Positions 30,790 through 36,072 of a DNA stretch of 36,072 nucleotides are shown here, one piece after another. Source of the DNA: an uncultured archaeon (GTDB taxonomy: Archaea; Asgardarchaeota; Thorarchaeia; Thorarchaeales; Thorarchaeaceae); assembly GCA_964610875.1 (NCBI GenBank), contig CAZSWP010000037.1, forward strand, positions 1-36,072, given 5' to 3'. The notes beneath the pieces were generated by a model that saw nothing but the letters and a program-made list of their open reading frames with translations, did no database searches and was not told where the DNA came from. The translations under genes and the position numbers were made by a program. Within the stretch, counting starts at the first letter, position 1, and each line of letters starts with the position of its first letter.

Positions 30790-31923
30790 CTACATCGTTT
30801 CTTTTGCTAAGGAAGTCAATCTTTTGCATCCATTAGAAGTGACCTGCAAAACATCTGATATTCTTGTAGTGCCTGCATTCTTTGAATAGCATGTTGGGTG
30901 AAGTGAAATCACCATGTCCTCACGAAGAATTACATCACTTCCAGAGGAGAGAGATGGTGGTTCCTGCAAGTCCAGACCAATTCCATTTCCAACTGGTTGG
31001 ATGAGCATTTTACAACAATCATCTCCAGCTTCAGACATAACAGAGTCCATGATTTCTCCGATGGAAGCATTAGGCGTCAGGTTTTCCTCAAGTCCATCTG
31101 CCACGGTAAGATTACACTCAAACAAAGCCCGTTGTTCTTTGTTGGGAGAGCTGGTCTGGATAGTTCGAGCCACCTCTGCAAAGTAACCGTCCTGACTGAC
31201 TGTGATATCAACGACCACAGGTTCATCGTTCGATATTCGATGCGTGCTTGGTTGTGCAAAAGGAAACTTGGCGGAAGTACCGGTAAGTATCGCAGCACGT
31301 ATTCCACGAAGTTGTCCACCAGCAGCTCTCATTGCAGATTCAATCTCGATTGAAGCTTCAACTTCTGTTTTTCCGGGGTAGACCACCTCTAGTGCTGTTC
31401 TTACGCCGATTTCAGCAATCTTTGTAGCTTCACTGATTGCTGCTATCTCAGTTGGACCTTTTATCTGTCGTAGTCGCCAGAGTTGACTGGAAAAGTCTTT
31501 GAAACCAGCATTGGGTAACGCGGTCTTGAGACGTTCAAAGTCTCTTACAGCGAGCCATTCTAGTTGCAGTCCCAGCATTCCATTCTGTATACCATCCTCC
31601 ATAATGACATCCAGTAATTTTTTCCAAAACGATTCAGAATGAGAAGGATGTCGAGAACCAGAAGCATCCTCAGAGAATTGTACAATCTTCGACATGAAAT
31701 TCTCCTTTAGAATAGCTTCATACTGGAGCTCTGAGAGAAGAAGAGTGGGTTGTTGACCAAGTGAGAGAAGACATCCTACTGGAATATCATGAAGGGGATT
31801 ATAATATCCAGTAAGATAATGGACATCCTGTGATCTTGTTACAAGAAGTGCATCAAGGTCATCACGACGCATCTTTCGATACACTTTCTCAAGTCGTTGT
31901 GGAGTAAACTGCATGACAGACAT
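30790..31923 (-). CDS. M24 (Xaa-Pro peptidase/creatinase) fold protein, metal ligands degenerate
   Basis: Creatinase-N domain (YLTGY), LRQIK..EI, GYFAEVART and GNGIGLDLQEPP motifs. Confidence 0.85.
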   Translation of the reverse strand: MSVMQFTPQRLEKVYRKMRRDDLDALLVTRSQDVHYLTGYYNPLHDIPVGCLLSLGQQPTLLLSELQYEAILKENFMSKIVQFSEDASGSRHPSHSESFWKKLLDVIMEDGIQNGMLGLQLEWLAVRDFERLKTALPNAGFKDFSSQLWRLRQIKGPTEIAAISEATKIAEIGVRTALEVVYPGKTEVEASIEIESAMRAAGGQLRGIRAAILTGTSAKFPFAQPSTHRISNDEPVVVDITVSQDGYFAEVARTIQTSSPNKEQRALFECNLTVADGLEENLTPNASIGEIMDSVMSEAGDDCCKMLIQPVGNGIGLDLQEPPSLSSGSDVILREDMVISLHPTCYSKNAGTTRISDVLQVTSNGCKRLTSLAKETM

Positions 31924-32047
31924 CTCTGGACAGGTAAATCACTGGGATTCAATGATTAAGTGCATGGGTTGTCGAAGTCACACCTCATTTAAGCTTCTCG
32001 CCGATGTAATTCAACTAACTTATCGTCGTAAATACTGAAGAAATTAA

Positions 32048-32096
32048 TGGCGGGACCGCCCAGATTCGAACTGGGGAAAACCGACTCCGCAGGCTG
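32048..32096 (-). tRNA. 3' half of tRNA-Arg(GCG), a fragment and probable att-site duplication
   Basis: Minus strand reads CAGC-CTGCGGA-GTCGG-TTTTC-CCCAG-TTCGAAT-CTGGG-CGGTCCC-G-CCA (anticodon loop, T arm, acceptor 3' strand, CCA). No D arm or 5' acceptor strand adjacent. Confidence 0.85.
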
Positions 32097-32123
32097 CACT
32101 ATGAACAATAATAATATGTTTCA

Positions 32124-32751
32124 ATGAATTCCACAATTGAGGTTTTGTTAGTGGCGGAGGATGAAAATATAGACGTAATACATATCAATCCTAAGAACAG
32201 AGTTCTAGAATTCATCCTAGTCATTGTAAATTCATTATTTATGGCGTTCTTAGTCAATCAACTAAGTGGGATTATCGACTCAATTGGTAGGAACCAATTT
32301 AGCTATGATGCACTCTATATTGGTAATTCTGATTCACGTGAATTCAGTCCAGATACCACGAGCTATAAGAGTTAGAGATATCGGTTCAGAACACTGAAGT
32401 GGATTCAGTATTTTTGGTAAAGGTATCGATATAACAATATCATATGAAAGCGCAAGAACAGTGCTTCCAGAACAACTAGATTTGACCATAATCAACACTA
32501 ACAAAAATACAAAAAGAATAATGATTAATCAACTAGAATTAACTGCAATAGTCAAAGTAACCATTTTTGGTTTTCTCCGTTTTAGAGAAGAATTCCAGAG
32601 GCTGATAAAATGGGTAGAAAGTTTTGTCAATAAATTAATTTCGGATTACAATTGGTACAAGTTCAGAACACAGAATGGAATTACTAGTTACAGATTAATC
32701 AATATTGAACATAAATGTGCCAAGCTAGAGAGAAAACAGAATAGTGAGTGA
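32124..32751 (+). pseudogene. Possible decayed gene (two short AT-rich ORFs in different frames)
   Basis: ORFs 32124..32375 (one hydrophobic stretch) and 32461..32751. No recognisable motifs. Confidence 0.25.
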
Positions 32752-32941
32752 AATCTCCATCCAGAAATACGAATTCGTACAAATATAATACACTACTATA
32801 CCATTTGAAACACTTTTTATTGAGAGAATTGAATCGTATTTTCGGATGGTTATCTTCAGCAATTTCATCATTCTTTTTGGACCTCTCTCAGGCTTTTGAA
32901 ATAGATAGTAAATAATAGTTCCATTCATTGTAACACAAAAA

Positions 32942-33414
32942 GGCACCAGCCTGCGGATGACCTATTTCTAAATAGTGAGTGAACCTCAACTGATTGAAAC
33001 TTCTGTGTTCCACCCTTCTCTTGCCAGTGTCGCCACCACTCAGCAATCCAGAAGATATGCCAAGATTAGCAAGAACTTTGTCTGTCATCATTGAGATGGA
33101 ATCCCTCCTACAGACCGGGCTTCTTTCTCCTGTTTTAGTACTGGTTCATCACTACCAGTGACAGAGAGATTTTCCACAGTTTTTCCCACGGCAGGGTCAT
33201 CATCACCCACCCCAGCATCATCACTGAAACTGAGAAGACTCATCTGAGCATGGTGAACGGCCGCGGACTCTCCAGAATTTGATATTAATTCCTTTTCGGA
33301 GAGTAAGGACTTCCCTTGAGAAGGCTTCTTCTCTTGGGCTTTCGGTCGTGTGCTTCGTGCAATAGCACTAGCCCACTTACCTAGTCCTCTCACAGAGTGT
33401 AATGACTTTGTGAG
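32942..33414 (-). ncRNA. Candidate omegaRNA overlapping the tnpB 3' end
   Basis: Hairpins at 33389-33414, 33318-33333, 33267-33304 and 33140-33159 lie downstream of RuvC-III. T5 run at 32937-32941. Boundaries are inferred. Confidence 0.5.
32970..32993 (-). repeat. 24-bp imperfect inverted repeat, copy downstream of tnpB
   Basis: Minus strand TCAGTTGAGGTTCACTCACTATTT versus plus strand 34804-34827 TCAGTTGAGTTCACTCTCCTATTT. Confidence 0.8.
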
Positions 33415-34758
33415 CATAAGAAATCGTGCTGCGATATTGATACTACCATTTCTGTCTGCATTGGTTTTCAGCCCACAACTTGGGCAATGAAAATAGTTTT
33501 GCTTTGGTCTCTTACCCTTAGCACCACATTTCCAACATATGATAGAGGTCCATGCTTCAGGTACTGCCTTACAACGGGCATTCTTCCCATCAACCTTCCA
33601 ACCAAGCTGAGCCAGCCCATGTTTCAAACTCTCCGTTACTCGCGAATAAGCCCAAGAATGTATCATCCCTCTGAACCTGCGCGATTGGTAGTTTCCTCTC
33701 TTGGCACGTATTCGAATATTTTTCAGGCGACCAATGGCAACATAGAGTGTGTATTTTTCAGACAACTCCGATATGTAATCAAGAAGATTACGAACTAGAA
33801 CACGATCGTATTCTTTAGCAATGTTCTCTCTTTTTGACCTTATCCTGCGAAGTTTCTTTGCAACCATATCATGAAGCTGTCCGTTATTCTGTCGATTATG
33901 CATCTCTCTCTGCAGGTCCGAAAAGAGTCTGTCATATCGCTTGATGATTTTGACCTTCTCTTTTTGTATAAAGTACTTGGTCTCTCTAACTTTTTGTGGA
34001 GTAAGAAGTGTTGAACAGGCTGCTTTCTCAATCCCAAGGTCAATACCAAGAACTGCAACCGGAAGATTGGTTTCGGGCGGTTCATCGATATTGATACGGA
34101 CTGCGAAGCTGACCCACCACTTGCGTCTTTTATCAGTAAAAATCTGAAGTGCCTTTATCTCTCCGCGTTCTATTTGATTCAGATGATAGGGGGACATCTT
34201 TAGAGGAATCATCAATCGGTCATGATGTGCTCTTTGTTCCTTTGCAGAATCAAGAGCATCACGAAGGTCTATCCACCAACGGACAACAGATGTCTTTTTC
34301 TCAATGATGTTGAATCTTTGAGAGAACACCCATCGAAGAATTCGTCGAGAACTTGTGATGGTTGTAGGACGTGAAGCAGTAAAACCTCTCTTCATTCTTA
34401 GTTTGAGATAACTCTCATAGAGAGCAACAGCTGTCTGTCGACACTCAGTCATCTCATTCTGAGAGATACGAGGAAAACGGACCTTGAAATCGTGGAGCAC
34501 ACTGGTTCTCGGTTCCACACCTGACTTCACCTTGAGTGCGGTCATTGTCAGCTGGTCAACCTTACCATCACTAATTCGGTCTTTTTTCTTGCCTGTCAAC
34601 AGTTCATCTTCATGTTGTTCAATTATTCCAAGAAATGCACGTATTACTCTGGTATCTCGTCCAACAGTCTGCCTAAGCCTTTGCCTTGTCCTTTTTGTCA
34701 TGGATTCCCAGTTGATTGGAACCTTCACCGCGATTGTCACACCCTTGGACCGAGCCAT
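33088..34758 (-). CDS. tnpB: TnpB-family RNA-guided endonuclease with rearranged RuvC-II
   Basis: RuvC-I LGIDLG (D240), AIGRL (G343 at the usual Glu), VPEAWTS (E401), CWKC/CPSC zinc finger, RuvC-III NADRNGSINIA (D435). Confidence 0.92.
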   Translation of the reverse strand: MARSKGVTIAVKVPINWESMTKRTRQRLRQTVGRDTRVIRAFLGIIEQHEDELLTGKKKDRISDGKVDQLTMTALKVKSGVEPRTSVLHDFKVRFPRISQNEMTECRQTAVALYESYLKLRMKRGFTASRPTTITSSRRILRWVFSQRFNIIEKKTSVVRWWIDLRDALDSAKEQRAHHDRLMIPLKMSPYHLNQIERGEIKALQIFTDKRRKWWVSFAVRINIDEPPETNLPVAVLGIDLGIEKAACSTLLTPQKVRETKYFIQKEKVKIIKRYDRLFSDLQREMHNRQNNGQLHDMVAKKLRRIRSKRENIAKEYDRVLVRNLLDYISELSEKYTLYVAIGRLKNIRIRAKRGNYQSRRFRGMIHSWAYSRVTESLKHGLAQLGWKVDGKNARCKAVPEAWTSIICWKCGAKGKRPKQNYFHCPSCGLKTNADRNGSINIAARFLMLTKSLHSVRGLGKWASAIARSTRPKAQEKKPSQGKSLLSEKELISNSGESAAVHHAQMSLLSFSDDAGVGDDDPAVGKTVENLSVTGSDEPVLKQEKEARSVGGIPSQ

Positions 34759-34772
34759 TGTCTTTCGCCTGA

Positions 34773-34786
34773 TTCTATATAAAGTT
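34773..34786 (-). promoter_or_regulatory. TATA box of tnpB, probably a leaderless or short-leader transcript
   Basis: Minus strand AACTTTATATAGAA, with TTTATATA about 18-25 nt upstream of the ATG. Identical 14-mer at 34870-34883. Confidence 0.6.
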
Positions 34787-34803
34787 CTGACCCGTTTCTT
34801 GAG

Positions 34804-34827
34804 TCAGTTGAGTTCACTCTCCTATTT
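34804..34827 (+). repeat. 24-bp imperfect inverted repeat, copy upstream of tnpB
   Basis: Partner of 32970-32993; 22 of 25 aligned columns are identical. Confidence 0.8.
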
Positions 34828-35004
34828 GTACGTAGAGAGTCTTTTGAACTCGTATTAGAGTCATCATATTTCTATATAAAGTTATTAAGATAAAATATCA
34901 AATAATATTTTGATTTTAGTTAGATTGTTTCTAGCTCAAATATTTTCCAATAAATTAATTTAGATAAATGTTTTAAATACCCAGCAAAACAGGAGATAAT
35001 TACT

Positions 35005-36072
35005 GTGTGGGAAGTGGGAAGACCTGAGAAAGGCTATCCAAAACACCCAAACAGAATACTCTACAATGCAATCAAGACAGGACTATCTACAACGATATTG
35101 CTTCAGAGAGAGATTGTATCGAAGGCAGGTAATCATCTCTATGAAGGATCAAAAGAGAACTGGGAAAGAGCAAAGATTCAGTACAGATACTCAGTGGAAA
35201 GAGGGGACCCAGACTTCACAATACTGACGAAATCTGAGAATAACATCCGGAAAAATCTGTACAGAATTCTAGTTGAACGTGCTGCGGCGTTTGGTATCCT
35301 TGAATCCGTCCGTGTGACAAACAGATACGAGAGTCTAGGTCCACTGAATCAACGTCTTAATATTATTGGAGCTGTGCTTCGTTTCCTTGGGATGAGCCAA
35401 TATGGTTTCATAGAAATGCAACAGCTAGTCCACAATGGCGAATTGGTCAAGGGTTTTGCTGCAAATTCGTATGCACCTCAAGTCATTCCAATTCATAATC
35501 TTCCAGAACTGGACTTCATTGATTCCTGTAGGTCACCGCTTCAGACACTTGCAATGCATTGCACTATCTTTGATGTGCCGCATACTGATACCAAGAGATA
35601 TGCCAATCTTTACATGCTCAAAATGTCACCATATCTAGACTATGTGTATACAGAACACGCAATAGGAGAACCTGGACTGAACAGGAAACTGATCTCTATT
35701 CTGAGAGAACTGAAAAATGATATTGCTGACCACTTTAGTACATGCCTATACCAAAATGATACAGTCACTGGCAAACAATCGTTTCCAACTCCTAAGTTCG
35801 AGAAGGAATTCTTTGAAACGCAATTACTAGAAGCTCAGCGTGCCGGTGTGCATCCTCTAGCACTCACGGAGTTCGAACGAATATTCACAGGCGGTTCAGT
35901 AGTCACTAAGACTGATAAAATAGAAGACGGGAAGATCGAGGAACATCCAGCTCCATGCTTAGTAGAAGAAGATGTCAAGCATCTATGGTCATTAATGTCC
36001 CAGAGTAGCATACGTATGGGTTCGCATATTCATCATCGACTCTCTCGCCATCTTCCAACCTACCGCAGCATC
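35005..36072 (+). CDS. Hypothetical protein, truncated by the window end (absent from the ORF track)
   Basis: GTG at 35005 with AGGAG at 34991 and TTTAAATA at 34972. 356 codons with no stop (MWEVGRPEKGYPKHPNRILYNAIK...SIRMGSHIHHRLSRHLPTYRSI). Confidence 0.8.
   Translation, partial: MWEVGRPEKGYPKHPNRILYNAIKTGLSTTILLQREIVSKAGNHLYEGSKENWERAKIQYRYSVERGDPDFTILTKSENNIRKNLYRILVERAAAFGILESVRVTNRYESLGPLNQRLNIIGAVLRFLGMSQYGFIEMQQLVHNGELVKGFAANSYAPQVIPIHNLPELDFIDSCRSPLQTLAMHCTIFDVPHTDTKRYANLYMLKMSPYLDYVYTEHAIGEPGLNRKLISILRELKNDIADHFSTCLYQNDTVTGKQSFPTPKFEKEFFETQLLEAQRAGVHPLALTEFERIFTGGSVVTKTDKIEDGKIEEHPAPCLVEEDVKHLWSLMSQSSIRMGSHIHHRLSRHLPTYRSI

Follow-up and report, generated by a model that had tools for sequence, protein, structure and literature searches.

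A family-wide inverted repeat inside the ends of a transposase-less TnpB cassette of Thorarchaeota, with a possible role in IS607-like end recognition

The present work concerns an inverted repeat (IR) flanking a tnpB gene in an uncultured archaeon of the family Thorarchaeaceae, on a stretch of 36,072 nucleotides (nt), hereafter the window, which corresponds to contig CAZSWP010000037.1 (C37) of the 3.75-Mb, 95%-complete assembly GCA_964610875.1. This IR is real and is found family-wide in over 100 Thorarchaeota copies, where it sits inside, and not at, the ends of a mobile TnpB cassette, the anatomy, conservation, ends and mobility of which are directly apparent from the loci compared. As for what the repeat does, the reading favoured here, with somewhat less than even confidence and by analogy with known elements, is that of the subterminal repeat of a non-autonomous IS607-like TnpB cassette, which would serve the recognition of the ends. 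In the window, the gene and the repeat are as follows:

33088 to 34758, minus strand: tnpB (P0001), encoding 556 amino acids (aa), with Pfam Cas12f1-like TNB and OrfB_IS605 domains and the NCBIfam guided_TnpB model
32970 to 32998, minus strand: right (downstream) IR arm, TTCAA-TCAGTTGA-G-GTTCACTC-AC-TATTT, read from 32998 to 32970, with its core at 32977-32984
34799 to 34827, plus strand: left (upstream) IR arm, TTGAG-TCAGTTGA-GTTCACTC-TCC-TATTT
34819 to 34812, minus strand: left IR core GAGTGAAC, within the 3' strand of leader hairpin 1

An earlier note on this DNA, made from its letters, had described a 24-bp IR flanking tnpB, and the repeat is present as described: the downstream copy is preceded by TTCAA and the upstream copy by TTGAG, the match runs over 9 perfect nt, a 1-nt bulge and 7 nt before divergence and TATTT, and 22-45 bp separate the upstream copy from the tnpB TATA box at 34776-34783. 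The sequence CCTATTT also stands at both 32961 and 34821. When the 150 nt upstream of the gene were compared by gapped local alignment with the reverse complement of the 150 nt downstream, the score was 18, against 9.9 +/- 1.5 in 2000 dinucleotide shuffles, of which two reached 18 or more. Stronger evidence than this score is provided by recurrence. The genome of the window contains about nine tnpB paralogs, with 44-73% aa identity to the window TnpB, and every full copy except one, on contig C12, keeps both GAGTGAA ~60 nt 5' of the ATG and GGAACAYAGRAG-(10-19 nt)-GTTCACTC 3' of the stop, downstream TTCACTC going with upstream GAGTGAA in all 7 paralogs; genome-wide, the longer motif occurs at tnpB copies only, the remaining matches being chance ones. 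Scans of genome and metagenome collections yielded 160 related loci, 80 of them genome loci; metagenome loci carry no organism names and the host count rests on the 80 genome loci, nearly all of which are titled Candidatus Thorarchaeota. Both motifs were present in ~55 of the 60 other-genome loci having both flanks, and among 98 unique loci, 80 had GAGTGAA in both cores. The stretch itself is contained in two DNA runs of a single microbial-mat study, with no RNA run listed.

The two arms also vary together. Matched core variants occur inside one and the same locus, i.e., GAATGAA/TTCATTC in L086 and GAGTGAG/CTCACTC in L065 and L067, and the 8-10 nt beside the core co-vary by lineage (CTCAACTG, CTCCACT, CCCTC..GAC, ACTCCC). 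Across the 98 unique loci, matched arms scored 6.07 and unmatched arms 5.45, the matched score being reached in none of 5000 permutations; as the true partner arm ranks merely 22nd of 98, the coupling is at the level of the lineage and not exact. The exceptional paralog (C12:84505-85989) has neither GAGTGAAC upstream nor GTTCACTC downstream; of the right-end hairpin, it retains the outer stem alone.

Aligned copies and empty sites, by which the earlier note proposed to find the ends of the element, place them at TACGAG and AGGTCA, away from the repeats. The cassette so delimited spans 32958-34854 of the window (~1.9 kb, from TACGAG to AGGTCA) and its coding content is TnpB alone. At least 11 solo loci, which lack the usual upstream context and have unrelated flanks, share homology that starts precisely with TACGAG, the solo unit measuring 1842-1902 nt; on the other side, the right flanks diverge directly after AGGT(C/T)A despite near-identical right-end tails. 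For one solo copy, namely L106, the two flanks are found adjacent, 15-75 nt apart and free of the element, in nine related genomes, while in a tenth genome this site is occupied by a copy with an internal deletion (L196). Empty and occupied sites are 75-81% identical, which is too diverged for a nucleotide-level junction, and no clear target duplication was seen. The left core lies 35 nt inside the TACGAG end and the right core 19 nt inside the AGGTCA end; because the mapped ends lie outside both arms, the IR is subterminal, and the two termini are unrelated to each other. Since a transposase-less tnpB unit has moved, an enzyme acting in trans is needed. The proposal of a non-autonomous element mobilised in trans hence stands as regards the lack of a transposase, the solo copies and the empty site; what does not stand is that the repeats would be terminal.

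Some side observations were made at these and other sites. The comparison involved L106:2914-4755 and the empty sites L193, L194 and L197-L203. Occupied L106 and L196 show a tandem second copy of ~27 nt of the target right after AGGTCA, absent from the empty sites, and in L196 the right-end core is flipped (GGGTGAACTCACCC). In a subfamily comprising L089, L099, L104, L107 and C3:15331-15741, the cassettes are located upstream of the same small gene (MPPKDMNI...FGCMQC...) and have the flank GGTCGGTGCATGCA in common, which suggests either an orthologous immobile position or a very specific target.

Elements of the IS607 family have unrelated termini, with no terminal IRs and no target duplications, and exhibit an imperfect IR at unequal distances from the ends as well as short direct-repeat motifs bound by TnpA (Chen et al., 2018, PMC6188088). 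It is because the cassette shows this same layout, including the motif AGAAAYRGGTYA in direct orientation at both ends, that it is read as IS607-type. On that reading, both arms would be cis-acting sites letting a trans-encoded recombinase recognise and pair the ends, working together with the RGGTYA motif directly repeated at both ends. We infer both this part of the IR in end pairing and the acting enzyme, which would most likely be an IS607 serine TnpA or, alternatively, the Cas1-like protein encoded next to tnpB; nothing indicated the DDE transposase considered in the earlier note. In the 95%-complete genome, no match to PF01797, i.e., the Y1 TnpA, was obtained, while two IS607-type serine recombinases (Resolvase plus MerR helix-turn-helix) are encoded on contig C18, each beside a homolog of the giant Cas1-like gene and a distant TnpB, and the IS607 elements of this genome present TAGGTTA at both ends. 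The two C18 loci (C18:16218-24704 and C18:60669-67782, or L204 and L205) each comprise a serine recombinase, a giant Cas1-like gene on the opposite strand and a 731-aa TnpB-like gene.

At the left end of the cassette, the features are the following:

34787 to 34854, minus strand: left-end unit, with the TACGAG start (34854), hairpin 1 (~34851-34810) and hairpin 2 (~34807-34788)
~34807 to 34788, minus strand: hairpin 2 of the left-end unit, CTGAC..GTCAG; the unit ends in GGGTCAG
34773 to 34786, minus strand: P1 box AACTTTATATAGAA, a promoter-like TATA box directly after GGGTCAG and 28 nt before the ATG
34870 to 34883, minus strand: P2 box, the same 14 nt as P1 and oriented alike; it begins 29-30 nt 5' of the left end

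In an alignment of the upstream 330 nt, TACGAG, hairpin 1, hairpin 2 (CTGACC-N-GGTCAG), the TATA box and the ATG are conserved, GAGTGAAC being the 3' strand of hairpin 1. RNAalifold on a MAFFT alignment of the left-end unit gave no consensus structure, with stem registers shifting between sequences, and the unit was for this reason folded sequence by sequence. Over 100 loci, the mean z was -4.4 and the tnpB-sense strand was stabler than the antisense strand in 91 (-23.8 vs -17.9 kcal/mol; p 1.7e-16); for hairpin 2, alternative compensating 5' arms were encountered, namely CTGACC, GACTCGT and ACCCATC. The P2 box is present in 93 of 128 loci. The boxes are 13-15 nt long, and P1 and P2 agree at 13.9/16 within a locus vs 10.0/16 between loci (0/2000 permutations), a concerted pattern for which no neutral process is an easy explanation. 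Regarding the miniature inverted-repeat transposable elements (MITEs) with the same ends that had been envisaged, no free-standing left-end module occurs away from tnpB in the own genome, and the left-end unit as an independent MITE was rejected on that account. A kink-turn in hairpin 1 was likewise rejected, as it is not conserved across subfamilies when judged by eye.

At the opposite end, the cassette overlaps the omegaRNA:

33000 to 33175 (5' limit approximate), minus strand: omegaRNA scaffold, overlapping the 3' end of tnpB and terminating in GGAACACAGAAG (33011 to 33000)
32958 to 32999, minus strand: right-end tail, i.e., last omegaRNA hairpin and terminal AGGTCA (32963 to 32958); right end of the cassette
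32937 to 32957, minus strand: flank adjoining AGGTCA, in which the tRNA-Arg(GCG) anticodon arm is copied; probable guide
32740 to 32760, minus strand: degenerate second right-end-like remnant GGATGGAGATTTCACTCACTATT

In a 110-locus alignment of the scaffold, the long stem GCUCUUGC/GCAAGAGA carries compensatory variants, and among close relatives the stretch following the scaffold is conserved as well as the scaffold itself (e.g., UUUCUUACAGUUGAGG). As predicted in 74 loci, the last omegaRNA hairpin takes its 5' strand and loop from the right arm and has an outer stem UCUUACA/UGUAAGA, an inner stem GUUGAG/CUCAAC or GUUGUG/CACAAU and a GUUCA loop; the strands of this hairpin pair best within their own locus (-9.2 vs -6.7 kcal/mol; 0/3000 permutations). 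The hairpin is followed by (A/U)RGGUYA, AGGTCA coming ~20 nt after the right arm, and thereafter the flanks diverge completely, even among loci with near-identical tails. In Asgard Cas1-associated TnpBs, a hypervariable region followed by GTTCACTCA downstream of tnpB was suggested as a possible guide in the main text of the publication describing them (Altae-Tran et al., 2023, PMC10691335), and the right arm coincides exactly with that region and motif. The earlier note had likewise considered the downstream copy as the guide. On sequence evidence, however, the right arm is a strand of a conserved scaffold hairpin and not a guide, and the sequence specific to each locus begins after AGGTCA, where it probably constitutes the guide; both the locus-specific flank and the co-varying scaffold stem would be compatible with a flank-derived guide. 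As for the hypervariable 16-mers, those of 7 copies had no own-genome target within 1 mismatch over 16 nt, and Rfam matched no family over 31900-35100.

In several loci, the right end of the cassette is bordered by fragments of tRNA genes and the giant gene, at its 3' end, by complete ones (window 32048-32096 and 32937-32960; L032, L034, L037, L051, L061, L079, L140, L146 and C47); most of these tRNA-like sequences were not called by ARAGORN, and the tRNA-like pieces in the flank 32937-32960 are confirmed. An element lodged as an intron in a tRNA gene was discarded, since neither its orientation nor its left flank fits. Degenerate extra right-end tails were also seen after intact cassettes or alone (window 32740-32760, L034, L037, in tandem, and C15:45982), which suggests repeated insertions at the same site or the decay of older copies.

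The IS607-like reading draws support from cassette ends that change less than the tnpB gene, from the C12 paralog without both cores, from the matched core variants and from the lineage-level covariation of the arms. Several observations weigh against it. The IS607 elements of the own genome carry a different IR (AACCTAGAC/GTCTAGGTT) without GAGTGAAC, so that cross-mobilisation by their enzymes is unproven; the cassette termini are not the GG typical of IS607; own-genome paralogs are at most 74% identical and thus do not support recent mobility within this genome; folding of the left-end unit strongly favours the tnpB-sense strand (91/100 loci); and a promoter box is fixed 29-30 nt before that unit in 93/128 loci. 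A double-stranded binding site does not explain the last two points, i.e., strand-specific folding and P2, which point to a single-stranded, probably RNA, role.

Such a role is at the heart of the main rival of the IS607-like reading, considered possible though rather unlikely, whereby the left-end unit would be transcribed from P2 as a leader or small RNA and would pair with the last omegaRNA hairpin. The 3' half of the leader (GAGUGAAC-UCAACUGA...AGAAA) would provide the left strand, the tentative pairing partners being GAGUGAAC and GUUCACUC, and the resulting antisense or repeat/anti-repeat-like duplex might regulate omegaRNA maturation, TnpB loading or tnpB translation. Besides the sense-strand folding bias, G:U-type substitutions in the stems and the constant distance of P2 from the left end agree with it, as does a Shine-Dalgarno-like AGGYGA before the ATG, which implies transcripts starting upstream. 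The duplex between the left arm and the right hypervariable stretch was computed at -10.2 kcal/mol for matched vs -8.4 kcal/mol for unmatched arms (0/3000 permutations), cofolding of the window sequences preferred the heteroduplex by a free-energy difference (ddG) of -6.2 kcal/mol, and AGAAAYRGGUYA continues both RNAs after the paired segment. A precedent for interplay between left-end and right-end RNA exists in IStrons (bioRxiv 10.1101/2023.11.20.567912). Yet right-arm variants (GUUGUG) are compensated in the local right-end hairpin and not in the left arm, random partners cofold almost equally well (-2.1 vs -2.9 kcal/mol), and solo copies retain the left-end unit without P2. As modelled, leader/omegaRNA pairing appears energetically feasible, not partner-specific. 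A bulge-helix-bulge motif of archaeal splicing or circularisation was dismissed by eye, the left/right duplex being of 6+8+8 bp with a 1-nt bulge, not 3-4-3.

A further reading, held to be doubtful, takes the left-end unit as a second, minimal guide module, which would be expressed from P2 and dock on the TnpB-omegaRNA scaffold via the IR in a repeat/anti-repeat-like manner. The unit ends in GGGUCAG as the omegaRNA ends in AGGUCA, and the following 14-15 nt, i.e., P1, are a copy, specific to the locus, of the P2 TATA box; by this tentative account, so short a match would steer TnpB onto its own promoter for cleavage-free autoregulation. It would explain the IR, the shared AGAAAYRGGTYA tail and the fixed spacing from P2 to the left end, together with the identity of P1 and P2 within a locus and their difference between loci. 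It preserves the spirit of the earlier idea of the downstream copy as guide while naming another guide and another target.

The IS607-like reading leaves a place for the neighbour of tnpB as the alternative enzyme, which brings in the second gene of the locus:

35005 to 36072, plus strand: giant Cas1-like (aCas1) gene in divergent orientation to tnpB; the contig ends before its 3' part

Homologs of this gene encode 1400-1880 aa and start ~250 nt from the tnpB ATG in 49 of the 80 genome loci. Sequence-profile searches of the giant protein against Pfam (including Cas1), NCBIfam and the PDB returned nothing, and the ESM Atlas gave weak leads, all below 0.8. The fold predicted for its N-terminal 340 aa, with a predicted local distance difference test (pLDDT) score of 80.9, is most similar to Cas1: Cas1 accounts for each of the 37 best structural matches (Z 8.3-12.8 over 140-187 aligned residues), those of type I-F being the closest, and the next unrelated match has a Z of 5.8. 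Residues E100, H164 and D173 are invariant, with a spacing that we take to be like that of the Cas1 E-H-D triad, and a PD-(D/E)xK motif (IDLVLF...LEIKTK) follows the Cas1-like domain. The N-terminus of the giant neighbour is thus predicted to adopt the fold of the Cas1 catalytic domain, and because the neighbour folds as Cas1, the locus belongs to the published aCas1-TnpB kind. The window protein is 93% identical to the neighbour of the C3b locus (C3:148802-152503) and 26% to that of C78. Between C37 and C3b, the cassette ends are 81-85% identical at the nt level and TnpB 44% at the aa level, as befits a mosaic locus; the ends of the cassette evolve more slowly than the tnpB gene.

If the Cas1-like protein were itself the integrase, the arms would be recognition sites resembling CRISPR repeats, with the cassette moved, or the segment after AGGTCA exchanged, by this enzyme; this is regarded as quite improbable. 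The closeness of the fold to type I-F Cas1 goes with a type I-F repeat that starts GTTCACTG, a resemblance noted in PMC10691335, and with the pairing to tnpB at constant distance. At the left-end core, an exact GAGTGAAC is found in 81/93 P2-carrying loci vs 25/40 others, a difference confounded by subfamily. To set against this, solo cassettes have moved without the giant gene, and no arm copy exists at its far end: local alignments 3' of the giant-gene stop scored as the shuffles did, so that IRs bounding the whole tnpB and giant-gene pair were also rejected. No Cas2 or CRISPR array turned up at the loci, where no search was aimed at them.

The TnpB protein bears on the idea that the downstream copy would act as a guide whose partial match upstream represses the tnpB promoter without cleavage. 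It matches PF07282 (TNB zinc-finger; 6.2e-12), PF01385 and guided_TnpB (3.6e-26) as well as TnpB and Cas12f structures in the PDB. In all 7 paralogs, the RuvC-II Glu is replaced by Gly (Gly343) and the canonical D-E-D triad is lacking, while D240, E401 (VPEAWTS, before the zinc finger) and D435 do not vary and the protein is not truncated. According to PMC10691335, the class with such a rearranged RuvC site is presumed active, and the window TnpB is, from its residues, of this rearranged and presumably active type. The two sequences are complementary, the upstream copy does lie beside the promoter, and autoregulation by a partial match occurs with Cas9 tracr-L, which offers a parallel. Nonetheless, repression by such a guide is very improbable: the segment is the conserved scaffold hairpin and not a variable guide, the RuvC site is rearranged and not lost, and the match carries indels, with indel and mismatch positions differing between loci, so that there is no constant seed. 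Least credible of all is an element with true terminal inverted repeats (TIRs), moved by a DDE transposase and bounded by a CCTATTT target duplication, for although the arms are inverted and flank tnpB, the mapped ends lie 19-35 nt outside them with unrelated termini, both copies of CCTATTT are internal and the empty site already refutes it.

Asgard Cas1-associated TnpB elements are known from computation only, and the main text of the publication describing them leaves the GTTCACTCA region unexplained. The present analysis provides (i) the exact ends of the cassette and an empty site, (ii) the supposed hypervariable guide read anew as a scaffold-hairpin strand, (iii) the inverted counterpart of this strand within the structured unit of the left end, and (iv) a duplicated promoter box specific to each locus. 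This defines small testable substrates, namely two ends of 40-70 nt with 8-nt cores, which address both the moving enzyme, IS607 TnpA or the Cas1-like giant, and left/right communication at the RNA level. Should the leader turn out to be a docking guide module, it would represent a natural split guide RNA in TnpB, intermediate towards tracrRNA/crRNA.

Compared with known systems, the cassette is closest in layout to IS607, IS1535 and ISC1926 (PMC6188088), which also have unrelated termini and an imperfect IR near the ends at unequal distances. It further shares with the IS607 family a short direct-repeat motif at both ends and a tnpB facing the right end, and its genome also encodes IS607 TnpA; it differs by having no internal tnpA, by TACGAG/AGGTCA termini instead of GG, by the sequence of its IR and by its usual pairing with a giant Cas1-like gene. 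Cas1H-Asgard-1 and -2 of Altae-Tran et al. (2023, PMC10691335) are alike in their Asgard host, in their diverged Cas1-like neighbour and in the conserved T, hypervariable stretch and GTTCACTCA downstream of tnpB; here, the stretch belongs to a co-varying hairpin, of which it makes up one strand, and recurs in inverted form upstream of tnpB, a copy that the main text of that publication does not mention. The IS200/IS605 elements (IS608, ISDra2) resemble the cassette in their near-end hairpins, in an omegaRNA overlapping the right end and in a right-flank guide, but their hairpins, which a Y1 HUH TnpA uses, resemble each other on the same strand, whereas the ends of the cassette resemble each other in inverted orientation and the genome of the window yielded no Y1 TnpA. 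In IStrons (bioRxiv 10.1101/2023.11.20.567912), the left and right ends interact at the RNA level and compete with the omegaRNA; these have a group I intron, none being detected here by Rfam, and the pairing proposed for the cassette is a simple ~22-bp duplex. Autorepression by TldR or tracr-L is similar in the idea of a guide partially matching a promoter, but TldR-like repressors are nuclease-dead through loss of RuvC residues or C-terminal truncation, while here D240, E401 and D435 are conserved in a full-length protein and the proposed guide is scaffold. Finally, TIR (DDE-type) transposons and MITEs have terminal IRs and a target duplication, in contrast to the subterminal arms and internal CCTATTT of the cassette.

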